NCBI GenBank assembly: GCA_051294905.1
Contig: CM119371.1
Span: 39,806,001 to 39,870,000, forward strand
Origin: Botryllus schlosseri
Taxonomy: Eukaryota
Length of the DNA: 64,000 nucleotides
Direction of reading: 5' to 3'
Within the stretch, counting starts at the first letter, position 1. Each line of letters opens with the position of its first letter. The notes under the pieces were generated by a model. It saw nothing but the letters and a program-made list of their open reading frames with translations, was not told the origin of the DNA and did no database searches. The position numbers were made by a program, and so were the translations under genes. This document shows, one piece after another, positions 4,578 to 58,850 of the stretch.

Positions 4578-4733
4578 CTTTTCCAATTTGCGATCTGATA
4601 ACTGCCGCAAATCATCCTGCTTGGCCAACAGATGTTGTTGTTCGTTCAATTTGATAAATTCTGCATCGAAAAGTATCCCGAGAAATACCACGTCAGTTAC
4701 GCAATCAATCTGGTCGACAGACAGAGTAGATGT
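4578..4733 (-). CDS. Putative internal exon of an unidentified gene (TSTLSVDQIDCVTDVVFLGILFDAEFIKLNEQQHLLAKQDDLRQLSDRKLEK)
   Basis: ttttcacag acceptor, AAG/gtcagt donor, 156 nt open in phase 0-0, non-repetitive. Confidence 0.5.
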
Positions 4734-6015
4734 CTGTGAAAATGTTGTCAGTTACATCACATCCTACGAAGAACTCATTCTCAGAGATACGACCAATCAT
4801 AAGAGAATATTGCCACTACATATAGCCAATGCCGGTAAGACGATGAGATCTCGTTATCAGAACATAGCTTGCCAAACGAGTCGTCTGAAATTGCGCACAT
4901 GAATAACACAACCGCTACATGAATTATATTGACTGAGACTTTCATGAAAATATATTAGCTCCCTCCATATCTATATTGCGCGAAGTATCACCAAATTCTC
5001 GACTCTCCATAAAAACGGTCACTGAATTTCTTCGTCATGGTCTCTTTCTCTCTTATTGGAAGTACATAACACTTCTACTTGACAAACTGTAAATGGCGAA
5101 AAGTAAGTTGGTGAGTCACAAAATATGACAAAGTACAAGTAGAAGTAGAGCGGCGGAAAATTTGATTTACTCGAGTGAGTACTACAAGTAGAGGGAAATA
5201 CTTGAGTACTTGGAAAGTAGAAGTTCCCCCTCTGGATTTGAATTAATAGAATACTCCCAACCAACCTTTCACTGTATCGCACGGTTATTTAAATTGAGTA
5301 AAGTCGACTAAAGTTTGATAAACGGTGATTTGAATTGATTGAAATTAAATATCCGATTTCAAATCGTAGCCTTCTCTCGGGTATGACCTGATGATGATAT
5401 GGTCAAGTACTGCTTACGCCATAATAACGCTCATAATTACGTCATAAGCAGAGGTGGCTACACTACACCGTGAATCCATTGCTGTATGTGATTATTATGT
5501 TGCTTTACAGCTTCGTAGTGAAGTCAGTGAAATAAACAAAGATCCGATCATCAGCATGAACCCGTTTATATAAAATATTAAATTTCATTTTGCCCATGAC
5601 TCTGGATCCCCCAAAAATCAGCGTCGAATTGTGCATTGTGATGGAGCTTGGCATTGTGACACACCAATGCTGCCTGGCTCTTGCTCCTGAGCTACAGCAT
5701 TGTTGTCAGACAACATTGTTGCGTCACAATGCCCAACAACAACACAATGTAAAATACAAGGCTGATTTTAGGGGGGAAATAAAATTTCTATTTTCGTAAT
5801 CGGTAGAGCAGTAGATTTCCATCAGTACACGTTTTATCAAATTCGCCACTCGACAAACTGGTCAAAATTGACCTTAGATTGCCTTTGGACAAATGGAATG
5901 TATGGCGTAACCCAATTGCAGTGAGCCGTTTAATCTCAACGTGTACACACCATATATAGGTCACTGGTGAATTGAACTAAGATCCGATCATCAGTAATGA
6001 TGTCATCATTCCAAC

Positions 6016-13820: not shown

Positions 13821-15137
13821 CAGGGGCGTATCCAGAGCGCGAAAAAGGGGGGGGGTTTGCGTTACGAAATTGGCTATTGTGACGTCATCATTACGATCAC
13901 TCGTCTCCACGCCCTGGCGAATAATTAATACATTATAGTTTAATATTAAACAGAGATTTGCGGTGAGTGGGAGATGTACGAATACGATACGGACATTGCC
14001 TGAAAATCGCATTTCTTTTATGGTCTGATTGAAAGAAATTCGTAAATGCTCACATTTAGTCATGAGCCGGCAAATGCCGCCCGTCTTCAAGCGCCTAGTT
14101 CCGGTCAGAGATGCGCGATTTTGTTGGGTTTTGACGATATTATGCGCACGGTCGGTAGTATCGCAGCGGACGAACAAGCGAGGAATAGGGCGGTAGCATA
14201 AACGAGGGCGATCGCCACAGAGAGGTGTGGTGTGAACAGTGTACGTCGTACACGAATGTGTGCTTTTCGATGGCTTTACTAGCCGTACGGCTGAGCGTGT
14301 AGTACGCGCGAAGATAATTAGACCTTAATTGCAAGCACGCAAGTCAGTCAACTAATACAGAGTACACACTGGGATAATAACTTGATCGACAGAGAAACTT
14401 GTCAGCCGATATAATTAGGCTTTACCACTAGGCCTACTCAATTCTCCCGTTCAGCGACAACATAGGCCTGTATTTGGACGACAGCAAGCCACCTAACAAT
14501 CGGGAACGTGGATTGCTAGGCTTGTATTTTGAAATGTGAATGTCAATCCTAGGCCATTTCTCGCCAATAATCGCGAATACAATGTGGATTTGAGAATAGC
14601 ATTGTCGTTCTGGTGCCGTCGTGTCTGCGTCTCGCTGATCAATCAACACGCCGCCGCGAGCAATTCTTAATTAGGATTTCAAGGCGAGCAGGTGGAGCGA
14701 ATTCGCGAGCGATGTTGATTGCCGACAACTTCGTCTTTGCAATTACGTATCGCGTCGGCCAATTAGATTAGATTTTCCTAAAATGAGTCTCTCGTTTTAG
14801 CAAGGCGAGAGAGAAATCGAGGGAAGAAAGTTGAGAACGTCGGCGATTGCCACAGCTGAAATGTAGCTGAACAAGTGCAGAATTCGTATGGAATTAGCGA
14901 ATTATAATGACCTATTTTATCCTTTCGACTAATTCGGCGCATAATTCCAATATTTTGTAGGGGTCTTAGTCCCCTTAAATAACATTAAGACGCCATATTC
15001 GCCTTCTCATACGTAAAAACGAATATGTTAAACTAATAAATTAGCAAATATTAGAGGCTATATTTGACATCAATTTTTAGGATTTTGAAAAGGGGGGGGT
15101 TCCGACCCCCTAAAACCCCCCCCTGGATACGCCACTG
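13821..15137 (+). mobile_element. Non-autonomous hAT element, about 1.32 kb (copy 2)
   Basis: Same TIRs as 2491-3821; TSD catgagcc/tatgagcc. Confidence 0.92.
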
Positions 15138-15204
15138 TATGAGCCTATGAGAGGACATATTTTATTTCTCCATATTGTTGAGTCTTACTACGCTCTTTGT
15201 ACAG

Positions 15205-15824
15205 TAGGGGTGTTCAACCGTTCAAAGATAACATTTTTCTTCAAATTTCACTGGCTACTTGATAAATTGAAAGGTTGGCTAAAAAACTCAGCATACCAGA
15301 TTTGGTTTAATTCCAACCAGTAGTCGCATTGCTACAAGAGAAGAAAGATTTGGATTTATTATATAAAAATTAAATAATTTTTTTTTAATTTTCTGTTCAC
15401 CCCGTAACATTGTTAGGTTGTGTACAGAAACGGTACTCACCAAATTTCGCTCCATTGCAACCAGTGGAAGCGGATTTATTGCAGTTCAAAAATTTGGATA
15501 CGACTAAAATAGTAATCCGACCAACGTAAATATTATTTTAGTCAAATCCAAATAACGTCGCTCACACTGGTTGCAATTGAGCAAAATTTGTTGAACATTG
15601 TTTCTGTACACAACCTTACAATATCATGGGTTGAACAGAATATTTAATTTTTTTTTTATATATTTTCAGATAATAAATATCAAACTTTCTTCTCTTGTAG
15701 CAATGCGGCTACTGGTTGGAATGGAACGAAATTTGGTGTGCAGTTGTTCGTTAATTAGGTAACATATTAATTTTATCAAGTATCCAGTATGATTTGAGAA
15801 AAGAGTCATTTTTTAACACCCCTA
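15205..15824. mobile_element. Palindromic hAT-type MITE (TAGGGGTGTT family)
   Basis: TAGGGGTGTT...AACACCCCTA; TSD ttgtacag/ctgtacag. Confidence 0.88.
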
Positions 15825-16094
15825 CTGTACAGATGCTTGACAGACAAGCCATAAAAGTATTAGCTATGACACACGCAATCACCAGTCACTCCTACATGTC
15901 AAAATGTTCGACTTAATTTTTCCCGCGCATTCGATGTCGCTTCTGCATTTGTCGTGGGCAAACAAATCAAATCCCGTCATCATTGCAACGATATAACATA
16001 GTAGTTGTACAAGCCATAGTCGTTAAACCAGGGTATGGTGAGTATGCTGCAGTTATCCTGTATTGTTAGTAGGCCTAAACGGCATACTCGCAAT

Positions 16095-16480
16095 AGGAGT
16101 ATGCAAAAATGACTATTTTTCAAATTCTACTGGCTTCTTGATAAAATTGTTAGGTTGCCTACTTGAAGGCTGCATACCAAATTTGGTTTAATTCCAAGCA
16201 GTAGCCGTATTGGTACAGGAGAACAAAGTTTTGAATTTATTGTTTAAAAAATGAATAAAAATTTTCTCAAGATTTTCTGTTCACCCGATGATATTGTTAG
16301 GTTGTCTATAAACGGTGCTCAACAAATTTGGCTCAATTTCAACCAGTCGAAGCGGAGTTATTGCAGTCGAAATATTTGGATTTGATTGTAATAGTATTTA
16401 CGTTGGCTAGTTCGAGAACTAGCCACCTTAAATATTATTTTATTCAAATCCAAATTATTCGACTGCAATTACTCCGCTTC
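16095..16480 (+). mobile_element. Truncated MITE of the TAGGGGTG family
   Basis: Similar to 412-700 and 15205-15824. Confidence 0.7.
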
Positions 16481-16564
16481 CACTGTCGAGCCGTGTTACT
16501 TGCTAGTGCATTACTCACGCGGCGCGTTGTGTGACAATTACGTTGTCAAATATTGATGCAACAA

Positions 16565-19500
16565 CAAATTTTCAGTAGCACAAATTCTCACAGTATTCGA
16601 TACATTTGAACGGGAACCTAGTGTATTCCAATTCATAAATAGCAACAGTTTTCCTACTGGTGTCGAAATTAATTATGGCAAGTACGGGGAAGCGGCGTAT
16701 TGAAATTTGTAGCGGTATTTGTTATATTGATCAAGGCTTTTGTACAGTTACAGAAGATTACGACCGAGCCCCGGCTGGTATCATGATTATACACCCTACA
16801 TTTATATATATGTTAATAAAAGGTGGTCAATATAGAAGGAGACGCGTGTTGAAATAGAAATGGTGATGCAGAATTATATACCGGTATACTCAAATACGAG
16901 TTGAAGCAGTGCTGTTCGAAGCAGCTCAAAACTATTTCAAGTGGAAGTGGAATTGCTGTCTTTGAAAACTACTCGAGTAAGTAAGTAGTTTTGAAAAGCA
17001 ATAATAAATACGCACTCATAGATCGCTAACACCTGGAAACTGAGAGCTGGTTCTGTGTTGCTACATCCCCAGGGAATTATTATGGCATAAGGATTCTCTT
17101 GCATCATGCGAAACAAATGATAGCTTTGCCATTGAAAAGTGGTTATGTACATGTTTTAACCCCAGTGCCCCCTTACAGAATATATGACGGTATGGCGCTT
17201 TTTATCGTAGTACAAGGCCCATAGTTAATGAGACGATGAACGATACGGACAAGTTGATTTAGATACTACATTCACGCTTTGATCGACTAGGAAGGAACCT
17301 GGAAATATGGAAGATCGTATAATTCCAAACATTTTGATGAGTGTTATTTACTATGACGAAACTGATATATGGGCGATGATGTGGTCTTAAAGTTTGCACA
17401 TACCACATAGGACAGCTACATAAATCATATTGACCGAGAGAGATATACATTTCGCAGAATCATGGTGAAAATTCCGAGAAAACAGCCACTGAATTTCATC
17501 GTCTTGATCTTATTCATTCTTTTATCGGATTATTAAAATACTTCTTCCTGATAAACTGTAAATAACGAAAAGTAAATAAGTAATTCACCAAATGAAACGA
17601 AGTTAAAGAGAAAGTAACTGGAAAGCGGATTTACTTGTGTAAGTAGGTACTGAAAGTAGAGGAAAACTACTCAAGTAGTTCCAAAAATGGGTAACGAAGG
17701 AAAGTAACAAAGTACCTCATTGCACAATGCATATTTTGACTCAAGTCAAATCACGGGGATTTTGAAAGTGACTCGATTCGAGTCAAGTCAAGTCGAGTCA
17801 CAATTTATAGCCAAGTTGATTTTTCACAGTATGAGGCATAATTGTGTTATTGCATTTTGATAGCTTTTTGAAAGTTGCCATTTATTTTGAATCGAGAGAC
17901 GATATGATGCAATGCACTAGCCATCTACACATCCGTGAGATCGGTGCCGATGGTTGACAAGTAACATGAATTCATAAGCTTCATTAAAATTTGGTTTCAA
18001 TTTTACAACAGGTTACTGACCACCTTAGGCGCTGAACCCTAATTTACCGAAGGTATGCGTGATCGATGACGGCATGAAGGGGCGACGTCATAATAGTCAG
18101 AATTGACGAATTAGCCGACTCGCAAACGTTCAATAGTCGGTTGTACATGGTGACAAAATTACGATACTATTAAGCAGACATCCTGCTGAATTGATTTCAA
18201 AATTTCCAAGGTAGCATCAATTTATTAGGTTTTAAGTACGTGCCCCAATCCCGATAATAATCTATCGCATTAGCTTCGTCGTGTTAATGAACTCGCACGT
18301 ATGATTATTATATATACTCGAAATCTACCGTAAGATAACTAGCGAGTCCGACTGTAGCCTACAGTGTACACTTGATTTGCAAGCTCACAATCTCCCATCA
18401 ATACGCGTTACGCTAACAGTCCGCCTCGGGAACAAATGAATATGCATTTTCGAAGACGGCTAATAAACCAAGTTCCATGCTCTGGACCCTGTTCAGTAGC
18501 GACAATAACTTTAAAGGAGCCTGCAACACATCTTCCGATCGTTGTGTTTTTGGTATTACCGCAAATAAAAGTCAATCACTCCGCATGATTCTGATTACAG
18601 CCAGTATGTATTTGAATTAATTCCGCCCGTGTTATATGTCTTGTGACAGTACGACATCACAATCACAGCAGACGCAATAGTACCGGCAGGCGAGCCAGAT
18701 ATCATATTTCTACACAGCAGGAGATGACAATTGCTACTTTTCAGGCCTATACAAATTAACATCATTCTAGTATTGAGGTTTCGGTCTTGTTGCCTCGCAT
18801 CGCATCTTCTAATTAGCCGCATTCGATCAATGTATTGCTGCTGATTTTCTCAAGTGGGCAGCAAGATTACGAAATACATTGCTGATTTCTAAATCGCACA
18901 ATTCACTAACTAGTCAAGCAGTTACATACCTAATGGAATTCTGGGTATGCGGCATACCGAAAAAAATTCCTAGCTATGCACGGCATACGAAGCATACCCG
19001 AGTCCAGTGCCTGTGCCGACCAAAATGAACACTGTTGGCCTACTCAATATTTTTTTAAATTTCACTGGTTATGTTATACAATTAATGTTTTGGCTAAAAC
19101 AGCGCTGTACACCAAATTTGGCTCAATTTCAACCAGTAGAAGTGAGGTTCTTGCTGTATAAAGTATTGAATTTATTATTTAAAAAGTAAAAATTAGAAAA
19201 ATTCGTATTTTTGCAGACTCTATAAAATAGTTAGACTGTCAGTAGAGATAATGCACACCAATTTTAGCTCAATTCCAACCAGTAGAAGTAAAGTTACTGC
19301 AGTAAAAAATTTTGGACTCTTTTTTTGAACTCTTTCAATAACTATTATTATAAAATCATAGAATTAGAAATTGAACAGTCCATAGAAGAGAGATATTTTG
19401 CCATTAGATTATTTTACTACTATAGTTAGGAGCTCCGATCACTTCGTTTGCGGTCAATTTATTTGTGATAGAGGAATGGAGGCCCGCCCAGTGAAATATA

Positions 19501-20100: not shown

Positions 20101-20372
20101 ATGGTAACTTTTCATATTTCATAGAGCAGTATCGCAGTAAGGCATACACACTCTTTTATCTTCATTTATAAACAATGATGATGAAAACTGATTACCGTGA
20201 ATTATCCTGTGCCAATTCGCCTTTAGTATACTTGAATATATTTCGAATGACAAGTGAAAACTGTGGGTGTGATCTGTGAATGGCAGCCTGGTAAACTAAT
20301 TTTGCAATTTACATAAACAGGTTAGCAATTGTGGAGGAATTGAAGCGTCACCCACGGGTGTCGTTGATTTGT

Positions 20373-20625
20373 ACATGTCGCCAATGTCGCCAATGTCACC
20401 AATGTCACCAATGTCGCCAATGTCGACGTCTATCTATTTTGTCCATGTCGCCAATGTCGCCAATGTCACCAATGTCACCAATGTCGCCAATGTCGACGTC
20501 TATCTATTTTGTCCATGTCGCCAATGTCACCAATGTCACCAATGTCGGCTATGTCACCAATGTCGCCAATGCCGACATTGCCGACAATGCCGCCATTGCC
20601 GACAATTCCGACATTGCCGACGATG
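20373..20625. repeat. 9-bp minisatellite (TGTC[A/G]CCAA)n switching to inverted units (GCCGACA[A/T]T)n
   Basis: Directly visible; includes a duplicated tgtcgacgtctatctattttgtcca spacer. Confidence 0.9.
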
Positions 20626-20879
20626 CCGCTCGGGGGCCGAAACTAGGGTAATGTAATGACAGGATTTTTGGTGACTCGACTTGAATCAATCTTATTGGTA
20701 TTGACTTGACCTGCACTCGGCTACTCAAGCACTTCGACTATCTCGCTACATACTACGCGATTCTTGACGGGAAGACCTGCATGGCCACAAACGCAAATTA
20801 TTTATAACTAATCATATTATTTATATTATTAGGCCTACGTTGAATTGAATGAACGTCGAAGTCTTTATACATTCCAGTG

Positions 20880-23795: not shown

Positions 23796-24307
23796 TAGGG
23801 CTGGGCAAAATCGAGTACCTGAGTGATTCGTTTCTGAATCACGTATTATGCTTCGAGTCTAGTCGAGTATTCCAGTATCACTAATTATGACGTCACGGCA
23901 GAATTTACAATGTAAAAATTCAAATTTGTACGTTTTATGCCACCACATAGAACATAATGCTTGTTATGCTTCGCATTAAAGATACTATGGTATTTTTACG
24001 ACCATACCGATTTCACTGCACCTCTTGATCATGTTGTGGGATGATCATGACTTCGCAAATGTGTTATTTCCAGGTATATTCGTAGCTTTGTACTATCTCT
24101 CGTACGCTGCGACACGGCCAATCAAGGTTTCATGGCTTCATCGGTGGAAAATAGTATCAAAACTTTAATTCATCTTACTAAATTTAGTTTCAGTTGCGAC
24201 CAGTGTATAATTTCAGTACTCAAAAAATCGTATTTTTGCTACTCGTATCGAATCATTAAAATTAATACTCGATTCAGATTGCAATACTGGAATTGTGCCC
24301 AGACGTA
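23796..24307 (+). mobile_element. hAT-type MITE, TAGGGCTGGGC family (older copy)
   Basis: TAGGGCTGGGCA...TGCCCAGACGTA; colinear with 54752-55253. Confidence 0.8.
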
Positions 24308-33234: not shown

Positions 33235-33570
33235 AATTATGACGTCACAACAAAATGTACTATGTGAAAGTTCAAACATGTACCTTTCATGTCACCACAA
33301 TGAACAAAATGCCTGTTATCCATCGCATTTAATGAACACTTATTATGACGTCACAACAAAATGTACTATATGAAAGTTCAAACATGTGCCTTTCATGTCA
33401 CCACAAAGAACAAAATGCCTGTTATCCATCGCATTTAATGATCACTTATTAGTTATTATGACGTCACAACGAAATGTACTATGTATCACTTATTAGTTAT
33501 TATGACGTCACAACGAAATGTACTATGTGAAAGTTCAAACATGTGCCTTTCATGTAACCACAAAGAACAA
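33235..33570 (+). repeat. Local tandem duplications inside the host MITE
   Basis: ttatgacgtcacaac[ag]aaatgtacta occurs four times. Confidence 0.85.
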
Positions 33571-35189
33571 AATGCCTGCTTTCCATCACATTAAGATACT
33601 TTGTGGTATTTTTCTACCATACCGATTTCAGTGAGATTATCATGACTTATGAAATGTGTTATTTCCAGTGTTATTCGTAGCTTTGCACTATGTCTCGTAT
33701 GCTGCGACATGGCCATTCAAGGTTTCAAGGCTTCCTCAGTGAAAACTAGTACCGAATCTATAACTCTCGTGGATAAATTAACTTTCAGTTGCGAGGAGAG
33801 TAGTGTTATGGGAATCGTTTGGTACCGTCCAATCAGAGAGCGCCACATCATCCTAATTACCACGCCCCTTTTCATACCCTAAGGGTACATTTTGCAAAAG
33901 TCATTAAATTCCGAAACTTAATAATAACATGCTTTCGAGAGAAAAATAACATTCAGATTACACATAAATTTCGGAAACTATGATATCTATACAAGACTAT
34001 ATTCGCCAGATATTCTATTATGTGTATTTAGGACTTTGAATTTTCGCGGATAATATATGACCTCTCAGATAACACTCATCCATGTTGAACTAGGCGCGAT
34101 TTTTATGATGATATATTAAAATTCTACGCACATTTCGCACGATCAACTTCGCATGATTGTATGTGTATTTAAGGCTATCTATGTTCACGAGAACACTAGA
34201 GAAATGACACTCATCAACGTTGAACTAGGCGTGGTTTATGGGAATACGATTTCTAAGGGTACACATTTAGATACTTTCCTCAGCAGAATCAATTTATGTG
34301 TATTTAAGACTATATATGATACACAAAACCTGTGTAAATATTTAGAAATGGCATCATCACTAATTAATTAATGTTCATTAATTTCGAATAAATAGCATAA
34401 TATATCAGTAATAGCGTTAACGTCACAAACGCATCCAGCACGATCAGATGGTGTAAAACAACGCTTTCGCTCGATTCTTGTAGTCACCACCTTTCATAGG
34501 ATTCAGTCCTTTTCATGTCACTAGAATAAGGGTGATTAAATCGACAATGAAACGCTGCCGGCGTCTTATAACGTAATAATGTAAGCTGCGTCGGGTGCTG
34601 CTATAATGTTAGGAGCGAATATTGTAGAAAGTCCACGTCTGGACGCCTGTAAGCAGGTGCGCATAGTAACGTAGTAATACGCATAACAGAATTCACGCAA
34701 AAGTCGATATTGCTTTGTGATGATTTTGATGTTGTTCCATACCGATGGGGAAGATAGCAAACCTAATTTCGTAACTAACTACATAATCCTTGGTAACGTA
34801 GTCAGACGCATAACGGAATTTACGCAAAATCGGTATTGCTCTGCGATAATTCGGATCACTATGTTTTGATAATGACTTGCTTCCGAGAAATAAATAACAT
34901 TCATTATACGTTAGATGATACTTTTCCTTGATATTCTATTATGTGTATTAAGGGCTAATGCGACATCACTATGTTGGCGACAGGCCTGATTTGAACAGAC
35001 TAATTTTGCGAATTAAACTTATGACCCACCACGGGCACTCAATGAAGAGCACCCTGGAGCACCACATAAATGCTCTACAATTGTTGACATATATTATACA
35101 ATGGTCGATGTTTCCTGACAATTTTTCAAATCTGAACAACCCTAGTGGACACATACAAGCCCGGTACGAGTTACAAGCGTAAGATGATG

Positions 35190-36225
35190 AAATGAAATGT
35201 GTGATGAAATTTGATGTGTCCCATTGTCATAATGTCCTACACCTGTGAACCAATCTTCAAGTTACGCATTCAATGTCTAGCTCGGTAATTCCGTTATTAA
35301 AGTTGAGTACGCATAGGTACGTGCTACGCTCCCGCAAAAGTCGGTATGGAAATGCGTTAGTTTTAAAGTTGTTCAATCATGAAATGCGTAACAAAATTTG
35401 ACATGGTGCATTGTCATAATGTCTTACAACTGCGTACCGAGTTTCAAGGTGGGGAGTCGATTATTAACATCGTAATTCCGTTATTAAAGTTGACTATGTA
35501 TGGGTACGTGCTATGCTACGGAAAAACAAATTTAGCCAAAAGTCTGTATAGAACTGCGTTGGTTTTAAAGGTGTTACATCATGAAATGTCTGACGAAATT
35601 TGGTATGGTGCATTTTTATTATGTCCTACAACTGTGTGCGAACGTTCAAGGTGAGAATTTAATGTTTAGCATGCTAATTCTGTTATTAAAATTGACTATG
35701 TATGGGTATATGCATGTTCACGAAAAACAGATATGCGTAAAAGTCGGTATTCGACTGCGATAGTTTCAAAGGTGTTCCATCAGTAGATGTGTGATGAAAT
35801 TTAGCATGGTGCATTGCCATAATCTCCTACAACTACGTATCAAGTTTCGAGTTGGGATTCAATGTTAAGCGTGGTAATTCCGTTATTAAAGTTGGCTATG
35901 TATGGGTACGTGCTATACGCTCCCGCAAAACAGATGTACGCAAAAAGTCGATGTAGAGCCGCGTTAGTTTTAAAGTTGTTCCATTATGAAATGCGTGAGG
36001 AAATTTGGTATGCTGCATAATCACAATGTCCTACAACTACGTACCAAGTTTCAAGGTGAGGAGTCACATATTAGCATGGTAATTATGTTATTAAAGCTGA
36101 TTATGTATATGTACACGCTACCGAAAACAGATTTAGGCAAAAGTTGCTATAGAACTGCGTTAGTTTTGAAGTTGTTCCATCATGAAATGTGTGATGAAAT
36201 TTGGTATGCTGCATAATCACAATGC
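35190..36225 (+). repeat. ~200-bp tandem repeat, about 5 units plus a partial unit, inside the Polinton-like element
   Basis: Units starting ATGAAATG[CT]GT at about 35192, 35379, 35581, 35780, 35986 and 36182. Confidence 0.9.
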
Positions 36226-36314
36226 CCTGGAGCTCATTTAAATACGTTTTTTTTTAATGTAGTTACACATTCTAGTTGTTTTGATGTAAGGAAAAAATCA
36301 TTCGATAACTCGAT

Positions 36315-37740
36315 ACAACTAGTTAACAGGCGTTGATGTAACTTTCCTCATTTGTATGCATAGCCTACGCGAAATTGGTTACCGAATTTTTCGATTAGTT
36401 TATATTCCGTATTTTATCTAAAACTGAAACTGTTAAGTACTACTTAAAGTGTTATAAAATGTGAAAAAGTGTACAAGTAGAATTATTATTATGTCATGAA
36501 TAAGTAGTTTACAAATTCATACGAATTTTCTTGTTATGTTCCGGGATAAAATGTAATTTTTCGCTCTTTTTTATTTTTTATTTTTTCAATAAAATTAGTA
36601 TTCATTTTACAAAAAACGTCGTTTAAAGATAAAGTACTTGTACATTTCGTAGTGCTCAAGTATAAGTTTCTAAACCATTACCTTGACAAAATTTTCAGAA
36701 TAGCAACTTTTGCGTAAAGTCTGTCTTGCATTTAGTTGCCGGCTTTGAAAGCAAGCAAAGTTTGTGGTATTTGCGCAACATCGAAATTTGTACACTTCAC
36801 GGTTATCTTATGATGTCGAAAACATAAGTTAGTTAAAAGTATTTCGATTCATGGGTATGAATAATTTTTAAAAACCCAAATATGTCGCATCCAAACTTCG
36901 AAATTTTTTCGATTAGTTTTTTCGATTCTATCTACTTTAAAAGACTCAGTGTAGAAGTTTCGAAACTTGCATGAATTACAAGCTACATAATACAATTAGT
37001 TAACACGCGTTCATGTAACTTTCCTCATTTGTATGCATAGCCTATGCGAAATTGGTTACCGAACTTTTCGATTAGTTTATATTCCGAATTTTATTTAAGT
37101 ACTACTAAAATTGTTACAAAATATGAAAAAGTATACAAGTAGAATTATTATGTCATGAATAAGTAGTTTACAAATTCATACGATTTTTCTTGTTGCGTTC
37201 CGGGATAAAATGTCATTTTTCGCTCTTTTTTATTTTTTTATTTTTTCAATAAAATTAGTATTCATTTTACAAAAAACGTCGTGTAAAGGTAAAGTACTTG
37301 TACATTTTGTAGTGCTCAAGTATAAGTTTTCAAACTATTAACTTGATAAAATTTTCAGAATAGAGACTTTTGCGTAAAGTCTGTCTTGCATTTAGTTGCC
37401 AGCTCTGAAAGCAAGCAAAAATTGTGGTATTTGCGCAACTTCGAAAATCGATAAAGTAGTCTAAAACCTAGTCACTTTTTACGTGGAGGGAGTACATAGC
37501 GAAGTCCTTGTACATTTTGGAGTACTCAAGTATAGGTTTGGGCTGCTTGCGCTATACTTAATGAATCATTCCTGTGTCATAAACACTCGAGTAGTTGGTG
37601 CGTGTAGACAAAAACCTACTTGAGTACATAATTTTTATTTTTCAATAAAATTAGTATTCATTTTACAAAAACGTCGTGTAAAGGTAAAGTACTTGTACAT
37701 TTCGGAGTACTAAAGTATAGGTTTTGTCAGCTTATTATAT
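36315..37740 (+). repeat. ~460-bp direct repeat (36315-36785 vs 36990-37445) plus partial further copies
   Basis: Near-identical blocks starting ..gatgtaactttcctcatttgtatgcatagcc; aagtacttgtacattt recurs to 37740. Confidence 0.85.
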
Positions 37741-37746
37741 GCTCAG

Positions 37747-38365
37747 TAGGGTGGTTCAAAAATAACCTTTTTTCCTGAATCTTGCAGGTTACTTGATTAA
37801 ATCGTTAGGTAGCCTTAAAAAACGACGCACACCAAATTTGAATTCATTCCAACCAATATTCGCGGATTTCGTAGAGTTTGAAAATTTTGAATTTGCCTAA
37901 AAATGCAAAAAAAAAATTTTTTCAGATTTTCCTTCCAACCTTACGAAATTGTTGCGCTGTCTTCAAAAACGATGGAAAACAAATTTGACTCAATTCCAAG
38001 CTGCAGAAGCGGAGTTATTCAAGTTTTTTGATGATAAATCTGAGATGATCCACCAATCAAGGATAATCCCAGAAATATCAAAGAAAAACTGAAATAACTC
38101 CACTTCTACGGCTTCGAATTGAGTCAAATTTGTTTTGCATCGTTTTCGAAGACAGCGCAACAATTTCATGGGGTTGGCAGAAAAATTTGAAAAAAATTTT
38201 TTTTTGCATTTTTAGGCAAATTCAAAATTTTCAAACTCTACGAAATCCGCGAATATTGGTTGGAATGAATTCAAATTTGGTGTGCGTCGTTTTTTAAGGC
38301 TACCTAACGATTTAATCAAGTAACCTGCAAGATTCAGGAAAAAAGGTTATTTTTGAACCACCCTA
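37747..38365. mobile_element. Young palindromic hAT-type MITE
   Basis: TAGGGTGGTTCAAAAATAACC...GGTTATTTTTGAACCACCCTA with near-perfect arms; perfect TSD ATGCTCAG. Confidence 0.93.
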
Positions 38366-38373
38366 ATGCTCAG

Positions 38374-39030
38374 TATATTATATGTCAAGAATTGTGGAGC
38401 ATTTATGTGGGTTTCCAGGGTGCTCTTCATTGAGTGTCCGTGTTGGGCGATAAGTTTAATTCGCAAAATTAGTGTGTTCAAATCAGGCCTGTCGCCAACA
38501 TAGTGATGTCGCATTAGCCCTAAATACACATAATATGAAAATCAAAGAAAAGTATCGTCTAACGTATAATGAATGTTATTTATTTCTCGGAAGCAAGTTA
38601 TTATCAAAACATAGTGGTCAAAATCATCGCAGAGCAATACCGATTTTGCGTAAATTCCGTTATGCGTCTGACTACGTTACTAGGGATTATGTAGTTAGTT
38701 AGGAAATTAGGAGTCCTATCTTCCCAATCGGTATGGAACAACATCAAAATCATAACAAAGCAATATCGACTTTTGCATGAATTCTGTTATGCGTTTTACT
38801 ACGGTAGTATGCGCACCTGCTTACCGGTGTCCAGACGTGGACTTTCTACTATTTTCGCTCCTAACATTATAGCAGCACCCGACGCAGCTTACATTATTAC
38901 GTTATAAGACGCCGACGGCGTTTCACTGTCGGTTTAATTACCCTTATTCTAGTGACATGAAAAGGGCTGAATCGTATGAAATGTGGTCAATACAAGAATC
39001 GAGCGAAAGCGCTGTTACACGCCGTCTTGC
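38374..39030. repeat. Internal diverged third copy of part of the Polinton TIR
   Basis: Reverse complement of about 34450-35100; same orientation as the right TIR, with more mismatches than between the two TIRs. Confidence 0.85.
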
Positions 39031-39752
39031 ATCGGTCACGATTAGTTTTACTTTTCAACTAACTTGTTGTCTGTCGTTACATTCATTAGACTCGCTTACA
39101 TGCGGCTAATTTGTCCCTATCATTATAACGTCGGGGATCGCGTACCTGCGGCGAAGGTGTTCGTTTAATTATAGCGACGAGAACCGGGTCCCTGCGGCTA
39201 GTCCGTTGGCATTTTAGTGCTGAGTTAAATACCCTTATACTCGACATGCAAACATTAATTTTTTTAATAAAATTAGTATTTATTTTACAAATTAGAATTT
39301 ATGCGTCTTCGGCTATATTGCCGGTTAACATTATAGCCGCGCACAGAACTCTTTATTACGTTATTAGCTATTTAAATGGTACGAAATAGGAGAAAACTCG
39401 GTACGCTGGCGATTTTTTCAATATAGTTGAGAAATGATATAACGCACCTTTAGGGCTCTGCAATCTGTTCCATTATCATACGCTTGTAACTCGTCCCGGG
39501 CTTGTATGTGTCCACTAGGGTTGTTCAGATTTGAAAAATTGTCAGGAAACATCGACCATTGTATATTATATGTCAACAATTGTAGAGCATTTATGTGGGT
39601 GCTCCAGGGTGCTCTTCATTGAGTGCCCGTGGTGGGTGATAAGTTTAATTCGCAAAATTAGTCTGTTCAAATCAGGCCTGTCGCCAACATAGTGATGTCG
39701 CATTAGCCCTAAATACACATAATAGAATATCAAGGAAAAGTATCATCTAACG

Positions 39753-40986
39753 CAGGGGTTCTCAACCCGCGGCCCGCGGGCCGCATGCGGCCCGCCGACG
39801 ATTATTTTGCGGCCCGCGACATCTTCCATTATGAACGCAATTGCTACTGGCACAGTATTGTTATGGAAGACCGATGTGTCATATTTGTCGAAGAACAGTT
39901 GTTGTAACGAAGCGTAGAAGCTTAAAATGATACCACGATAGTTTCTTCTGGAGTTATACATATCGCCTGATCTTAGGTAAAACGTTGCTAGCTTGGTGTC
40001 AAGCCCAGCAATCCATATTTCGAGGCATTGTTAAAATTGCCGACGACGTTACCGACGCATTGTTCAAAATTCTTAGAATATCGCTAAACCCAAGAATCTG
40101 CGAGAGAAGGTGTGACTGCTATAAAACTTCAACGTACTGTGCGAATATTCGCTGTTTCTGCAACTTAGCAGCAAGGCCAACACAACATCACCTGACAAAT
40201 TTCGAAGCTACAGTTGTCTGATTCAATCGTCACCAGAAGAGTAGCAGCGCAGTCTCAGTCGATGTTTTATCGCGTGTTCTGAAACACGTTGCCACGTAGA
40301 CTACTTCAGCCTCTAGGGTTGGACGAATCCACCGACTTCACACACATTGTATAGCTAATTATCCAGATGCGTTTTATCAGATTGGACATGGACATATTTC
40401 CAGAGTAAATGCTGATGGGGCAAACGTGCGAAGGGGACCAGTGAAAAACTTCAACTGGAGAAAGCTGACTTCTGTAACTATGTGTTGGGCTCCAGTAATG
40501 GAAAAATGAGATGGGTTGATTGGTTTGCTCAGAAATGACCCCGCACACCAGACTTCTTCTCGTATCACTGAGAGCTCAAAATGATAATGGCCTCTGTAAC
40601 AAATAACGTAATCTGAACGTAATTTTATACTTGCTCGCTCACGCATTGAAACAGAGGTTTGATTCTATGGTGGAAAGGTTTGAAGGTGCATATACCGACT
40701 TGCAACGAATGCTATTCGCACGCTCCATTAAGGGATTTACTTGCGCGGCTGAAAGATAGATATTGTCACAAAAAAAAAAAACAGCAACTGCAAACTTACG
40801 AACGCTGTCCAATATTGCTTAGAATGCCTTAAAATGTACTAAATGTCCGTATAAGACTGGTAAATAGGCTACAGTAGCCTAAATTTAATAGTAGCCCACA
40901 AATACGTGGCGATGATGTTATGCGGCCCGCGGCGCCTTTTGTTGTTACAATGCGGCCCGTTATACGAGCGAAGTTGAGAACCCCTG
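39753..40986 (-). mobile_element. Charlie/Buster-type hAT deletion derivative with transposase remnants
   Basis: CAGGGGTTCTCAAC...GTTGAGAACCCCTG; perfect TSD ATCTAACG; remnants such as IILSFYASL resemble the C-terminal part of Buster/GTF2IRD2-like transposases. Confidence 0.88.
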
Positions 40987-42007
40987 ATCTAACGTATAAT
41001 GAATGTTATTTATTTCTCGGAAGCAAGTCATTATCAAAACATAGTGATCCGAATTATCGCAGAGCAATACCGATTTTGCGTAAATTCCGTTATGCGTCTG
41101 ACTACGTTACCAAGGATTATGTAGTTAGTTACGAAATTAGGTTTGCTATCTTCCCAATCGGTATGGAACAACATCAAAATCATCACAAAGCAATATCGAC
41201 TTTTGCGTGAATTCTGTTATGCGTATTACTACGTTACTATGCGCACCTGCTTACAGGCGTCCAGACGTGGACTTTCTACAATATTCGCTCCTAACATTAT
41301 AGCAGCACCCGACGCAGCTTACAGTATTACGTTATAAGACGCCGGCGGCGTTTCATTGTCGATTTAATCACCCTTATTCTAGTGACATGAAAAGGACTGA
41401 ATCCTATGAAAGGTGGTGACTACAAGAATCGAGCGAAAGCGTTGTTTCACACCATCTGGTCGTGCTGGATGCGTTCGTGACGTTAACGCTATTAATAAGA
41501 AATTAATGAACATTAATTAATTAGTGATGATGCCATTTCTAAATATTTACAGAGGTTTTGTGTATCATATATAGTCTTAAATACACATAAATTGATTCTG
41601 CTGAGGAAAGTATCTAAATGTGTACCCTTAGAAATCGTATTCCCATAAACCACGCCTAGTTCAACGTTGATGAGTGTCATTTCTCTAGTGTTTTCGTGAA
41701 CATAGATAGCCTTAAATACACATACAATCATGCGAAGTTGATCGTGCGAAATGTGCGTAGAATTTTAATATATCATCATAAAAATCGCGCCTAGTTCAAC
41801 ATGGATGAGTGTTATCTGAGAGGTCATATATTATCCGCGAAAATTCAAAGTCCTAAATACACATAATAGAATATCTGGCGAATATAGTCTTGTATAGATA
41901 TCATAGTTTCCGAAATTTGTGTATAATCTGAATGTTATTTTTCTCTGGAAAGCATGTTATTATTAAGTTTCGGAATTTAATGACTTTTGCAAAATGTACC
42001 CTTAGGG

Positions 42008-43474
42008 CAGGGGTTCTCAACTTCCCTTGTACAACGGGCCGCATTTTTACAAATAAAGACCCTGCGGGCCGCAGAATATTATTATCATGTATTTGCGGGC
42101 TTTTATTAAATTCAGACTACTATAGCCTATTTACCAGTCGTATACTGGCATTTAGTACGTTTTCATGCATTCAGGGGCATTAATGGACAGGGTTCGTAAG
42201 TTTACAGCGGCTGTTTTTTTGTGAGAATATGTATCTTCCAGCGGCGCAAGTAAATCCTCATATGGAGCCTGCATTGCATTCGTTTCCAAGTAAGGTAGGT
42301 ATATGCACCCCCAAACCCTTCCAACAGAGAACTGAACTCCTTGTTTCAATGCGTGAGTGAGCAAGTAAGTATGAATTTACGGCCACTCTTTCGTTACAGA
42401 GGCCATTATCATGACTTTCAGCTCTCAGTGATATGAGAAGAAGTCTGTTGTTTGGGGTCATTTCTGAGCAAACCAATCCACCCTTCTCCTTTCCTTCCAT
42501 GGCTGGTGGAACCCTGCACCAACAGTTACAGGAGTCAGCTTTGTAAATTTGTTGTTTTTCGCATTTCCTCTGCAAATATGTCTACTCTGATAAAATGCAC
42601 CCAGATACTTAGCTGGAATCGGTGGATTCGTCCAATGCTAGGCTAAAGTAGTCTACGCGGCAACATGGTTCTGAAATGCGATAAAAGATCGACCGGCATT
42701 GCTGTTACTCTTCTAGTCACGGTTGAATCAGACAACTGTAGCTTCGAAATTTGTCAGGTCATGATGTCATCGCTGCTAAGTTCGGGAAACAGCGAATATT
42801 CGCACAGTATATTGAAGGCGTATTGAAATCACACCTTCTCTAGCAGATTTCTTTGGTTTAACGATATTCTGAGCACTTTTGAACAATGCGTCTGTAACGT
42901 CGCTGCCAATTTTTACAATGCCAGAAATATGGATTGCTGGGCTTGCCACCAAGCTTGCATCGTTTTTTCTAAGATCAGGCGATATGTGAAACTCCAGAAG
43001 AAACAGGCGTGGTACAGGCGTGGTATCATTTTAAGCTTCGACGCTTCGTTACGACAACTGTTTTTTGACAAATATGACACATCGGTTTTCCATTTATATC
43101 TGGGAAAGCAAATTCATTGCTCCACGCAGAGTTACAAACCCAGCTTTCGACGTTCTCGTTCCTAGTACTTATGTCTGCTCAAACCATTCAAGGTGTGTGA
43201 CACACTTTTTAAAAGTGTTCTACGCAGCGGGATTCTCTTGAAGCAGAGTGCAGCCAAATACTGATTCAAAACAATATCAATCTACACTTCAGCATAGGCC
43301 TATATCATGATACCAGAACTCATCAAAGAATGAATAATCAAACGACACAGAAACAGTGCGATAAGAAAGCTAAGTAGCTAAATTAATGCAACAATTCTGT
43401 GCCAGCAGTAATTGCTTCCGTAATGAAAGATTTCGCGGGCCGCAAAAGAAACGTCTGCGGGTTGAGAACCCCTG
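42008..43474 (+). mobile_element. Charlie/Buster-type hAT deletion derivative, related to 39753-40986, opposite orientation
   Basis: CAGGGGTTCTCAAC...GTTGAGAACCCCTG; perfect TSD CCTTAGGG; degenerate transposase-like pieces (HTFSSRF, IILSFDASL). Confidence 0.88.
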
Positions 43475-43946
43475 CCTTAGGGTATGAAAAGGGGCGTGGT
43501 AATTAGGATGACGTGGCGCTCTCTGATTGGACGGTACCAAACGATTCCCATAACACTACTGAGGAGAGGTTTAATTTTAGTACTCGAAAAAAACGTTTTT
43601 TACTACACGACTCGAATCATTAAAATTAATACTCGATTCAAATTCGAGTACTCGAATCGTTGTGCCCACCCCTAGTTACATCTGATTGAACAAATGCGCA
43701 TACATTGACCTCAATCAACGAGATATATGTAGGCGCAAGTCACCGAGCGATATCATTTGTTTGTTTCAGTTGATATCGCAACATTACGTGGTCGTTGGTG
43801 CATTGACATTGTTACATATTTACTATGTGACAACTTCAAACTTTGTAGCGTCGAATTTACGGCGATTCAAAATTCGTAACATAATACACCGAAGTGGATG
43901 CCGCGATTACGGAATGAAATGTTCTCGAATTATTTAAATGAGAAAC

Positions 43947-52044: not shown

Positions 52045-53302
52045 GGCTAATTCCATTATAATTCAACAGGGGCTGTAATGCATACCCTCAGAATTGTCCA
52101 ATATTTACAAATGTTATTATTTTTTGAATTCCAAGTTTATTAAAAAAAAAAAAATTGAAAAATGTTCAGCGGTTTAAAAGATATTGCGATTTAAAATCCT
52201 CTCGTCACTAGGTGGCGCTACTTTCAAAAATCTTTGAAATCGATATTTTTCGCTTAAATGATGGTAGAGAACCAATTAAAATGTCCATTAAACCAATTCT
52301 GGGGCCAAGGAATTCAATGAAACCAACTGTTTCGCCCTAAACTCAATGAAAAAAAAGTTACGAATGAAAAAAAATGGGGGGGACGGGCTTGAAAATGTCT
52401 GTAGGATACGGCCTACACAAAAAAAATTCTTGTGAAATGTGCTTTTAAGGAGTATGGTTGATAAAAAGCTTGATTTTAAATTTCACATTCATTCCACCGT
52501 GAAATATGCATTACATAAAAATTTCATGGTCCTAACCCATATCCCTGCTCATCGTAAATACTATTATGACCAGTCAGATATATCAATAAATTTATTCGTA
52601 TTGGTTTTCGAAATTTTTCAAGTAGATTTCGCGCGGAACCACCGCTTCAACAATAATAGAAGCAAGTAACAAAAGACAAATTTACAATTGATCTTGAAAT
52701 GTGGCAAGGATTCTACTTGAAAAATTTCGAAAACTAGAATAGAAAAATTTAATGATATATATGACTGGTGATAATAGTATTTACGGTGAGCAGGGATATG
52801 GGTTGGGACCATGAAATTTTTATGTAATGCATATTTCACGGTGGAATGAATGTGAAATTTAAAATCAAGCTTTTTATCAACCATACTCCTTAAAAGCACA
52901 TGTCACAAGATTTTTTTTTTGTGTAGGCCGTATCCTACAGACATTTTCAAGCCCGTCCCCCCCATTTTTTTTCATCCGTTACTTTTTTTTTCATTGAGTT
53001 TAGGGCGAAACAGTTGGTTTTCTTGAATTCCTTGGCCCCAGAATTGGTTAAATGGACATTTTAATTGGTTCTCCACCATCATTTACGCGAAAAATATCGA
53101 TTTGAAAGATTTTTGAAAGTAGCGCCACCTAGTGACGAGAGGATTTTAAATCGCAATATCTTTTGAACCACTGAACATTTTTCAATTTTTTTTTTTACTA
53201 AACTTGGAATTCGAAAAAGAACAACATATGTAAATATTGGACAATTCTGAAAGTATGCATTACAAATCTCAAAAAATTTGCTGAATTATAATGGAATTAG
53301 CC
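52045..53302. mobile_element. Long palindromic foldback MITE (~585-bp arms, ~80-bp spacer), apparent 4-bp TSD
   Basis: AGTA|GGCTAATTCCATTATAATTCA...TGAATTATAATGGAATTAGCC|AGTA; a partial older arm lies at about 60110-60618. Confidence 0.9.
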
Positions 53303-54751: not shown

Positions 54752-55253
54752 TAGGGCTGGACAAGATTCGATTCCGAATCACGTAATATGCTTCGAGTCG
54801 AGTCGAGGATCGAGTATTAATCACTATGACGTCATTACAGAATGCAATATGTCTAAGTTCAAATACGTACCTTTTATGTGACCACAAATAATGTAATGCC
54901 TGCTTTCCATCACATTTAAGATACTTCGGTATTTATTCAACCATACCGATTTCATTGCACTTGGTAACAATGTTGTGGAATGATCATGACTGCGGAAATG
55001 TGCTATTCACAGTAACGTACATATCTTTGTACTATATGTTTCATTTGTTAAGATACGGGCAATTAAGGTTTCAATGCTTCAACAGTGAAAATCTGTGTCG
55101 AAACTATCATTCTCGTTGCTAATTTAACTTTCTGTGGCGATGAGGAGCGTATAATTTCATTACTCGAAAAATCGCATTTTACCTCTCGACTCGAATCATT
55201 AAAATTAATACTCGATTCAGATTCGAGTACTCGAATTATTGTGCCCAGCCCTA
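54752..55253 (+). mobile_element. hAT-type MITE, TAGGGCTGGGC family
   Basis: TAGGGCTGGAC...TGCCCAGCCCTA; perfect TSD CTCGCGAC. Confidence 0.92.
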
Positions 55254-56119: not shown

Positions 56120-58850
56120 CCTACATAAATGAAATATGCAAACAAACTGCGCAAATTAGCCGCTATGCCACAGCATCGGCCTCTACTTTCGAAAATGCCT
56201 CGTAATCATATTGTCAATAATCTGCTTTTGTGCTGATTGAAAGCAGTAACTCCCGAACAACGATACTAAAAGCATGGTGCTCCTCGCCAAAATCTACCAT
56301 TACAAACAACTTGCTCAAAAACTTTACATGCGGTACATTTTCTTTTCACGTGTCTTCGACATCGTTATAGCTACTTGTACTCCACTCGGAATCGAAGCCG
56401 TTACACTTCTCGTGTATCAACGATGACTCCTTTGCATCTTGGGTAGCACTCGAAACTAACACTATTATATTTCCTCAGACTTACACCATTGAATAGCAGT
56501 GAGATCTGTATTGAACCAAATCAACGATAACGATTTGTAACGATCGAGTTAACATGACAAGACATCACGCAGCAGATCTAGTTGCCGAGTCCGGATCAAA
56601 TCAGAATTCACCATTCATATACTTTTCCGTCCGTATTCGCCCGAATATTCACCATACCAACTGAGCGATCTTTTGGATCTGTCTCCTTCATCATTTTCAC
56701 TCGGCTACGTTACGGTCCCAATCGTCCAAAGCGAGAGCGCACACTTGTTGTTTTACAGAGATAAAACCCAACTGTTCGTAAATCGACGAGTCGGAAGTGC
56801 GGAAAAAATACATCAAACCTGGCCGCTCTTCGGTGGCAATCTTCGTTGGCTCGTGGAGCACATAACACTCAGGCTACGATTGATAAGCAATTGGCATTGA
56901 TCGAGAGCAGGTACCGACTGAATCAATTTAAAATCTCTCATATCCCAAACTTCAGTGTTTATGATCACTTCCAAACCATTTGACGGAATACACTGCTGAC
57001 GGCATGGTTGAACTCCTCAAATCTATATACAGGTAACGTCTGGTGCTTTCGGACATCCCAGAAACACCCGTCGCTTAGGACTAACCGGTCGTCATACGAA
57101 AACGTGGCGCGTTTTTTTGGTAGCAACGCGAGTGGTTGTCTTCTATATAGGTATAAGCACCCGCGTCATTTCCGTAGGTGTTGATAGCCGTGCCAGTGTT
57201 GAGTCGAAGATAATTGCTTGGGTTGAAACACTCGTGACGACTATTTTGTCTTGCACGGTCTTGGAAAATTCGACGTATTCAATACTGTCAAAGTTACCTT
57301 TATGTCGGACGTTTTGTCCATAGCTAAAAGAATGCAGTTGTGGAAGCACCAGTTGGACCATAGGGTCAGCATCACGCCTCCGGCGTACGAGGGTTCGATG
57401 CTAATAACGGCCGAATCGAAAACTCCTGTCTTGATGCGATCTTCAAAGTTTGACGCTCTGGGGAAGTGAAAATTTCCAGCACTGTCTCCGAGAATCAGTT
57501 CGCAATGGTCATCATGACTGAACGCAACAGACATGAAGCGCGAATTTCGATCCCTGGCAGGCCGGATCTCCCCAGCAGGCCTGAATTGGCTGTAGATCAT
57601 TCTCAATTCGTGCCTCATACCGCCCCATTCAGGATAAACCCCCTGTCGATCACAGTGTCGTTTTCGGATGTTGATCGATGCTTCAATTTTGTTCATAAGC
57701 TTGGAGCAACGGTGGCGAATGAATAGAGAAAACGGGGGCATAGGTGCTACCGGATTTCGACTTTTGGAGTGTTTGTGATTGCTGCATTCCTCGATGAGAG
57801 AATTGAGAGTAACACACCGAGCGATATCATTTTCTGCAATAAACCTTTTGCTAGTTTCTAATTTTTTCACATATTGATCCATGAATAAAAAGTTATCATC
57901 TGCATCTGGAAAAGCCTCAACCCAAAGTGTCCTGCGAGGATCCGACAAAACAGACAAATATAAATAATCAGCAGAAAGTCCTCATAGTCTCCGAGGCAAC
58001 ATTACTTGTCATCACATTCTTCCAGTAAGCGTCGAGTGTAATTGCTCTTCTCGTTACGATTCTTTCCAAGAGTAACTTCACTTCGTTGCAAAACTTGACG
58101 TGTAGCTGTTTGCTGTCTTTGCGAATTGGCTTCAGGATAGCTTCATGTATTTTGCTGGTCAACACGTGAAGCTTTGGTGAGATCTCACGCAGTGGACGGT
58201 ATTCGGCAAATCTTATGAGCGCTTTACAAGCAAAGTAACGGGTTTCATCTGCCGTACGTACCGGCTTCGTGACACCTAACAAAGATAGCAGGGTGTTCAA
58301 GCCATCTGCCTGCCGAATGAGTTTCTTTAACTTCACGTTTCTTCTTGTTACATCATGGTGCAGCATGCACTTTGAAAGGTTCACGTCCGGATGCATAATA
58401 GTGCTGATAACAAGATACGATATCTCACATATCCTCCACAGTCATATCTTTCAAAATCTGGCAGTAGTCCACATTCCAGACAGCTTGATCGTCCCACACT
58501 TTGGAAGACAAGAGAATAGCACCTGAACACAAAATCGACCAAATTACCAGCTATAAATAGTCAATCAAATGGACCAAGTTATCATAATTAAATAAGGGAA
58601 AGCAAAAATCGTGATATAGAGAATATATAATGAAACACATTCTCATTCATAGCATATTGCCACATTGTAAAGACCTGGCTCGCCCGCACAAACTACCAAT
58701 GTTGTTTCGTTGAAGGTTAACTAAATACCGTTTTTTGAGTGGTTCTAGTTCTAGTTGCGTGTTTTGAAATAGATTTGTTCCAGGTCTTTTTCTTTAAAAA
58801 AAGGAATTAGTTGCGGACCAACTAGAAAGCCATCGTTAGGCATAATCATT

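Follow-up and report, generated by a model that had tools for sequence, protein, structure and literature searches.

A 64,000-nucleotide (nt) stretch of Botryllus schlosseri DNA (assembly GCA_051294905.1, contig CM119371.1, positions 39,806,001 to 39,870,000 of the forward strand; hereafter the window) contains, at 33799..43560, an element with the ends of a Polinton. This element is a decayed, centre-less member of a family of palindromic satellites. We consider it probable that the family, about 15 kb long in its palindromic form and Polinton-ended, likely relies on a Polinton resident in the same genome, and that the copy studied here likely lost its middle after integration. A sequence-only reading of the window had described a gene-less Polinton with very long terminal inverted repeats (TIRs), mobile as such. 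Its description of the element was accurate, as was its view of a non-autonomous family, whose gene-poor copies are numerous and lie at different sites, with target-site duplications (TSDs) that differ. The parts of the element and its immediate surroundings are the following.

33491..33798 (+): left part of the host MITE (miniature transposable element with inverted repeats)
33793..33798 (+): left TSD, GAGGAG
33799..33804 (+): left end motif (AGT)2, in the form given in PMC8097293
33805..33828 (+): 24-nt variable end tag, nt 7-30; the same tag is at the element's right end, and it is a mosaic family-wide
33829..33847 (+): conserved CCAAT-N9-CCAC box, nt 31-49; like an endoplasmic reticulum (ER)-stress element in most relatives (consensus in PMC5890977), with the final base altered at this end
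33799..35192 (+): left arm remnant of 1,394 bp, the TIR of the sequence-only reading
35193..36250 (+): array of a ~202-bp repeat, an arm module found across the family; it starts at the putative deletion junction 35192/35193, unique among the candidates searched
36313..37446 (+): arm module duplicated locally, two copies ~90% alike
37747..38365 (unstranded): later insertion 1, a self-palindromic MITE, TAGGG..CCCTA, 8-bp TSD ATGCTCAG, which we take to be hAT-like from its ends and TSD; the site is empty in the relative C6a
38366..39467 (-): inner right arm, collinear with the left arm of the palindrome C16a; contains a third copy of 34446-35099, 92% alike
39468..43560 (-): outer right arm, pairing with the left arm and broken by insertions 2 and 3
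39753..40986 (unstranded): later insertion 2, a CAGGGG..CCCCTG element, 8-bp TSD ATCTAACG, right arm only
42008..43474 (unstranded): later insertion 3, a CAGGGG..CCCCTG element, 77% to insertion 2, 8-bp TSD CCTTAGGG, right arm only
43555..43560 (+): right end motif (ACT)2
43561..43566 (+): right TSD, GAGGAG
43561..43674 (+): right part of the host MITE

The element starts with AGTAGT at 33799, ends with ACTACT at 43560, and is flanked on both sides by GAGGAG. Elsewhere in the window, a short repeat matches its flanks at two places (23876-24301 and 54815-55253; 72-86%), and the latter has a single GAGGAG at the corresponding place, which bears out the proposed clean insertion into a MITE whose empty form occurs nearby. 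The inverted repeat pairs 33799-35192 with 39468-43560, the right side being split by two insertions. The alignment consists of three blocks (98.8, 96.9, and 97.2%) with one 19-nt gap, where an indel of ~20 bp had been noted, and the arms have diverged by 1.5% (21 substitutions in 1,391 aligned positions, two indels). Once the three later insertions are removed, each with its 8-bp duplication, about 6.4 kb of the 9.8-kb element are left, as had been estimated. Insertions 2 (39753-40986) and 3 (42008-43474) are related and lie in the same arm in opposite orientations. They are found in one arm only, and therefore the arms were not re-templated after them. The end motif, 6-bp TSD, and TIRs are those of a Polinton, and none of the core genes (pPolB, integrase, ATPase, protease, capsid) was found in the element: the longest stop-to-stop frame has 112 amino acids (aa), the best tblastn match to 71 open reading frames (ORFs) from four resident Polinton loci has an E-value of 0.013 over 14 aa, and there is neither a Bcl-2 remnant nor an Rfam match. 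The reported absence of core ORFs or their remnants is thereby confirmed.

The family was studied in the 495-Mb assembly (219 contigs). The comparison of the element's first bases with the genome, proposed as a check, gave 41 matches for the first 200 bp among the best 40 of 447 candidates. Five mutually exclusive end patterns account for at least 677 ends (83, 251, 93, 183, and 67), a lower bound that includes helpers; reversed controls gave one match. The TSD is a perfect 6 bp in 30 of 36 end pairs (the element studied among them), matches at five of six positions in three and at fewer in the other three, and none of the 36 has a duplication of 4, 5, 7, 8, or 9 bp. This is the combination of Polinton-type ends and 6-bp TSDs at multiple loci that had been anticipated. 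The target sites lean to N-A-Y-R-T-N (158 ends). The spans of 101 end pairs, matched by hand among the ends listed and including helpers and nested insertions, have a median of 15,483 bp (quartiles 14,528-17,259), with 43 between 14.4 and 16.5 kb. A 44-kb palindromic element (C6:90195-134615, TSD TGTCCG) has a helper-family Polinton nested inside, and several other spans, of 20-42 kb, look likewise nested. A 22.3-kb element with matching ends (C1:40580318-40602659) has two centre motifs and is possibly a replication dimer or an internal duplication.

Of 20 copies, seven are self-complementary from one end to the other, over 14.6-16.2 kb (for C15a, 16,223 columns at 99.65%), and most of the remaining ones have long arms interrupted by one-sided indels. 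The fold point is conserved, with a GC-rich stem base and an unpaired loop of 39-46 nt that is G-rich on one strand. The centre motif occurs at 218 sites in the genome (0 in the control) and has no match in viral contigs. Among 14 copies selected for their ends, 10 have it complete, one has half of it, and three have none; conversely, of 10 loci selected for the centre, six are bounded left and right by family ends inside the 20 kb examined. The arms are mosaics of modules that differ between copies. As read from the assembly, intact members are whole-length palindromes of ~15 kb around one conserved G-rich loop. In copy L033 (7663-7705), the loop has TTAGG/TAGGG runs that resemble telomere repeats and, by eye, a two-tier G-quadruplex is possible. 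Three other observations on the palindromes were set aside: the folding z-score of the centre is true by construction, the flip/flop of the loop on the + strand merely reflects the orientation of insertion, and a Penelope-like reverse transcriptase in C1b that seemed symmetric is an inverted insertion in one arm.

The element can be placed within this family module by module. Inward from its right end, it has T (1,394 bp), X, and Y, in the same order as in C16a; its left arm is T alone, which adjoins the far end of Y at 35192. The segments 35192-36998 and 38385-39257 are collinear with C16a. Twenty relatives combined match 6,339 of the 6,423 core positions, and any single copy covers 1,432-4,860. 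The 1.39-kb repeat appears to be the leftover of arms that are ~7-8 kb long in intact relatives. The family centre motif is absent from the window, the element has no whole-length symmetry, and the arm/interior junction at 35192 has no second occurrence in the genome among the best 40 of 1,915 candidates. Decay in place is likely because the centre is missing and the junction is seen nowhere else among these candidates; the element would have lost its middle by a deletion across the centre after integration. The 6.4-kb long-TIR form was proposed to be the mobile unit, and this proposal is not supported, given the same two observations and the ~15-kb palindromes formed by intact members.

The long-TIR form would be rare but mobile if the element were instead a copy-back (panhandle) product, made by a polymerase that copied 5 kb, jumped to the nascent strand, and copied back 1.39 kb before integration. 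We regard this as unlikely. The layout, T plus the reverse complement of T X Y, is an exact panhandle with a 4.3-kb loop, the ends and the TSD are clean, and adeno-associated virus (AAV) has asymmetric snapback genomes (PMC8235507). However, no second copy of the junction appears among the candidates searched, 6.4 kb is far under the family band of 14.5-17 kb, and relatives commonly show partial central losses (four of 14 copies are without all or half of the centre). Moreover, the junction is not a clean switch: it has a few extra repeated bases, which weakly favour host repair. A loss of the middle in the integrated palindrome is the likelier reading.

The candidate helper of this family is a Polinton with the same ends, resident in the same genome. 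On C6, a gene-bearing element lies inside a palindrome; its end is that of the satellites, and it encodes an rve integrase (PF00665, E 1e-12) with a chromodomain, an A32 ATPase (PF04665, E 8e-9), and a BIR protein. Its capsid-like ORF has at least 101 scored loci, in four identity bands. Among the 41 capsid loci at 90% or more, 28 have a polymerase-like ORF upstream, nine have Bcl-2 instead, and four have neither; three copies of each kind were read, and it is in the copies read that helper ends are shared. The helper A_C4 (18,649 bp, TSD CATCCG, 168-bp TIRs, same end) has a 1,294-aa polymerase-like ORF and the same gene set as the C6 copy. Together with A_C1 and others, it shares AGTAGT-N24-CCAAT..CCACGTC with the satellites. 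A helper of 15-20 kb had been predicted, and those found, with the same ends, measure 17-18.6 kb. The polymerase-less form (B_C3, 15,556 bp, TSD GACGTG) has a Bcl-2 cassette, common with the palindromes, where the helper has its polymerase and the ORF upstream of it (C3:4178811-4194366, C1:8322176 on, C8:24814930 on; nine such loci), and these copies keep the integrase, ATPase, and capsid genes.

The putative identities of the polymerase and the capsid come from Atlas neighbours and gene order. The polymerase ORF of a sister lineage (79-81%) has Atlas neighbours with PF03175 at 0.97. The capsid ORF matches PF21738 with an E-value of 0.011, which does not pass the cut-off, and is at 0.98 to Atlas clusters with PF21738 in 15-30%, a recognition below the threshold of the tool; a search at E<=1e-10 gave it 2,544 relatives. 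A candidate protease is encoded by the ORF that follows the capsid gene. Genome searches with Pfam PF03175 (polymerase) and PF00770 (adenoviral protease) returned nothing, which we read as sensitivity failures because the helper was found through an ATPase hit and the nested copy. A second gene-bearing lineage on C11 (359-bp TIR, 67% capsid identity) was rejected as helper, since its ends do not match. This Polinton (C11:4506703-4526063) has a caspase-domain ORF and a ubiquitin-conjugating enzyme ORF.

Helpers and satellites have a further trait in common, the tag at nt 7-30. Ends differ there at 54% of positions, against 2% and 7% on either side, and 82 elements have 74 different 24-mers, across helpers and satellites. 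One tag is exactly shared by a polymerase-less helper form and a palindrome. The tag is made of recurring blocks: 18 alleles of nt 13-20 are seen at least twice, with a mean difference of 5.3 of 8 sites. Non-adjacent blocks combine as in shuffles (p 0.34-0.44), and adjacent ones are linked (p 0-0.008). The direct reading of this mosaic is recombination; template switching early in protein-primed synthesis, together with selection for diversity, may lie behind it. Within the 36 pairs, the two tags are identical in 29, differ by one base in five, and by two in two, an agreement that gives no unbiased rate, the pairs having been partly chosen by tag. Among six candidate pairs with differing tags, five have a perfect TSD, and C3b behaves likewise: either integration accepts molecules whose two ends differ, or a later event replaced one end. 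In four elements with identical tags at both ends, nt 37 shows one and the same A/C difference, a hint that correction of one end by the other may reach only the outermost ~36 nt. One tag is found at six loci (C2:29187335, C6:20256852, C9:14193423, C10:3516346, C11:742786, C11:23464495), which suggests a recent clonal burst, in contrast with the mostly unique tags elsewhere. Two other explanations of the tags were rejected. They are not copied from an internal cassette, as two gene-bearing copies contain the 18 recurrent 8-mers 0-3 times and two palindromes contain them 0-6 times, nowhere as an array; and TSDs that resemble tag blocks do not mark insertions into other ends, since their flanks are unrelated DNA.

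The adjacent positions, nt 31-49, match CCAAT-N9-CCACG at 134 of 145 ends. This consensus is that of the ER-stress element, bound by NF-Y and ATF6 (PMC5890977), and the box would be a putative promoter element of this type. There are also 67 ends without the CCAAT box. Satellites do not need it, because two palindromes with such ends have 99.7% arms.

Gene-less though the element is, the family is not. Many of the relatives carry, in both arms, a Bcl-2-family ORF (PF00452, E 1.9e-19) that is absent from the element studied and whose nearest solved structures are BCL2L10 and Mcl-1. A genome search gave at least 150 matches (the 150 best of 420 candidates), mostly as inverted pairs. RNA over one arm amounts to 129-249 reads per 1.3-1.9 Gb, on both strands. 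Nine reads, in three of four runs, skip a 184-nt GT..AG intron right after the BH2 GGW motif, and the next exon encodes DGFVGFF and a hydrophobic tail; the idea of an intronless Bcl-2 was abandoned once this joint appeared. The intron suggests a cellular gene captured as DNA. Pairwise dN/dS (the ratio of nonsynonymous to synonymous rates) is ~0.44 over 13 distinct copies, a value obtained from the 19 of 36 sources parsed, with non-independent pairs and uncorrected counting that biases it low. Homologue searches returned none for Bcl-2, whose donor was not placed, and one for the capsid. Acquired modules are present in both arms (Bcl-2, and helper left-end genes in K263), as re-templating from one arm would predict.

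A mechanism can be proposed in which a hairpin of half the length would be what replicates, made up of a single ~7.5-kb arm with one protein-primed origin and one closed loop. The helper polymerase would start at AGTAGT, displace a strand, and read through the loop, giving a 15-kb duplex with two origins; displaced strands would snap back and restart synthesis. The helper integrase would then insert the duplex with a 6-bp duplication. The size peak just below the length of the helper suggests that selection for fitting the helper capsid may operate. Template switching between co-replicating molecules would shuffle the arm modules and the tag. Once integrated, the palindrome would be unstable, and in the present case a central deletion would have taken most of the left arm, followed by the 1.5% divergence and the three insertions. 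That there is a family of helper-dependent palindromic satellites is well supported, and mobilisation in trans is suggested by the shared ends and the length of the TSD. Hairpin replication, packaging, and interference with the helper are what we infer beyond this.

Several points weigh against this account. The mechanism is read from DNA in its integrated state; neither a hairpin outside the chromosome, nor a terminal protein, nor a particle was observed. Gene conversion in the chromosome could alternatively keep the arms alike. In the helper, neither the polymerase, the capsid, nor the protease was above the Pfam cut-off, and PDB scans did not pass either; for the polymerase, a pattern search for motifs A and C was empty, and the Atlas query came from the 79-81% sister lineage and not from the helper itself. 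The search for the junction covered the best 40 of 1,915 candidates. Finally, for one pattern the hand-matched spans draw on 100 of 251 ends, and they range over 5-42 kb.

Some of these points would suit another process, in which the helper integrase only excises and reinserts the elements and chromosomal gene conversion homogenises the arms, with neither a hairpin replicon nor packaging. No free form was observed, the ends alone are shared with the helper, and the RNA over the arm is low and from both strands. Yet a fixed loop and a narrow size band recur in hundreds of copies whose arms differ in content, insertions that followed integration remain in a single arm, and blocks of the tag recombine freely even where the elements lie on different chromosomes. 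We find this process improbable.

The helper-dependent palindromic satellite must also be distinguished from a defective-interfering genome, the term used in the sequence-only reading. The satellite part of that claim stands, and derivation from the helper does not: in each of 14 satellites of 10.7-16.2 kb, 98-1,194 bp match A_C4 (1-11%). With so little of their length matching, the satellites did not arise from it by mere deletion. Nothing like the centre is present in the gene-bearing Polinton stretches with which it was compared; the capsid gene matches it over 11 nt and no further. It is accordingly very improbable, and largely refuted, that the helper itself gives rise to each palindrome anew as a snap-back defective genome of its own; the ends are those of the helper, and in some palindromes both arms contain up to ~550 bp from its left end or the two genes located there, but a single centre conserved in 218 copies, foreign to the helper, and the small matching fraction speak against it. 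Foldback chimeras yield near-perfect palindromes, and it is nonetheless hardly credible that the giant palindromes are artefacts of long reads or assembly, given the perfect TSDs across both outer ends, the conserved non-palindromic loop, and the insertions and substitutions specific to one arm.

The palindromic satellites may be part of a three-tier system, a picture that we offer tentatively and rate a little below an even chance. It would comprise the Polinton helper, the Bcl-2-bearing polymerase-less form, and a distinct satellite, living as a half-length hairpin with one origin and a fixed G-rich loop and padded to capsid size, with a spliced anti-apoptotic gene and, by the ER-stress-type box, a shared and recombining 24-nt origin tag, perhaps an end 'code' under helper-satellite or host-silencing pressure.

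To our knowledge, no animal Polinton has a well-described replication cycle. In current models, a single-stranded fold-back intermediate is a proposal (bioRxiv 10.64898/2026.07.28.741278). With natural palindromes that have a fixed loop, it becomes possible to test for this intermediate, for the minimal cis signal, and for a limit of size set by the capsid. The minimal cis signal would be approximately the first 32 nt, because 67 ends are without the downstream box, and origin and integrase recognition would tolerate the 54% difference at nt 7-30. The shuffled tag may serve as a barcode for each copy lineage and record recombination between the ends of helpers and satellites. There is also a warning here, in that 'long-TIR' Polinton relics can be collapsed palindromes. 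The element itself is a fossil, and its value is as an entry point to the family.

The window has other features. On the minus strand at 57241-58441, DCAF1/VprBP is matched by a pair of neighbouring open frames (E 3.6e-19 and 4.7e-12) over residues ~724-819 and ~1001-1177; they are close together with no obvious intron, and we read them as a gene fragment or a processed copy. There is a ~1-kb foldback element at 52144-53196, a ~800-bp repeat duplicated at 94-96% (2606-3400 and 13934-14719), and a 9-bp minisatellite with open frames at 20359-20628. Two runs labelled as other organisms (X12, X16) contain 0.23-0.24 of the window words, and no conclusion was drawn from this.

Non-autonomous and polymerase-less Polintons are already known, and Repbase includes non-autonomous ones. 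Autonomous Polintons/Mavericks (adintoviruses) resemble the family in their (AGT)2//(ACT)2 ends, their 6-bp TSD, and a length of ~15-17 kb, that of the intact relatives (PMC8097293, PMC8502044); the end motif of Polintons can also be (AG)3//(CT)3 (PMC8097293), and adintovirus accessory genes include homologues of Bcl2 and IAP (PMC8097293, PMC8502044). They differ from it in their TIRs, published as 46-1,447 bp, whereas the inverted repeats of the family span the whole element without core genes, and in the absence from their description of a conserved central loop, a Bcl-2 gene with an intron, and a shuffled nt 7-30 tag. The main text of PMC8097293 has no occurrence of 'palindrom' or 'non-autonomous', and we found no description of whole-length palindromic Polinton dependants in the literature searched, which mostly excluded subscription journals; the supplementary Bcl2 figures of PMC8502044 and Repbase may bear on this. 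Pieris has Polintons that lack polB and carry cargo (bioRxiv 10.1101/2025.02.07.637071). They are likewise helper-dependent and Polinton-ended, and the nine loci with Bcl-2 in place of the polymerase are of the same kind; however, they retain capsid and integrase, the available text describes no palindrome, and the satellite family shares little but its ends with the helper. In Halocafeteria, virophages as well as PLVs (polinton-like viruses) have terminal palindromes for which hairpin-based replication was proposed (bioRxiv 10.64898/2026.07.28.741278), but these are ~52 nt at the ends of gene-bearing genomes, whereas the family is a palindrome over the whole element with a central loop. The snapback genomes of AAV are self-complementary, helper-replicated, and symmetric or looped, as in the family; they are heterogeneous pieces of the parent virus (PMC8235507), whereas the family is inherited as a germline-integrated lineage that keeps one fixed loop and has cargo and modules of its own. 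Further literature for comparison is found in PMC6431247, PMC4443254, PMC3014272, and bioRxiv 2026.10.13.758929. Compared with a defective-interfering genome, self-complementarity is present in the intact relatives and in part in the element, and the sequence is not derived from the helper, which the satellites match over 1-11% of their length. The closest mechanistic precedent is the yeast 'hairpin plasmid' of Kikuchi et al. 1985, in which hairpin and doubled palindromic forms reportedly arose from a protein-primed linear plasmid; it is said to be cytoplasmic, non-integrating, and laboratory-derived, with neither capsid nor TSD. Among these systems, the family is neither an autonomous Polinton nor, not being derived from its helper, a defective-interfering genome, and it works like a snap-back satellite.

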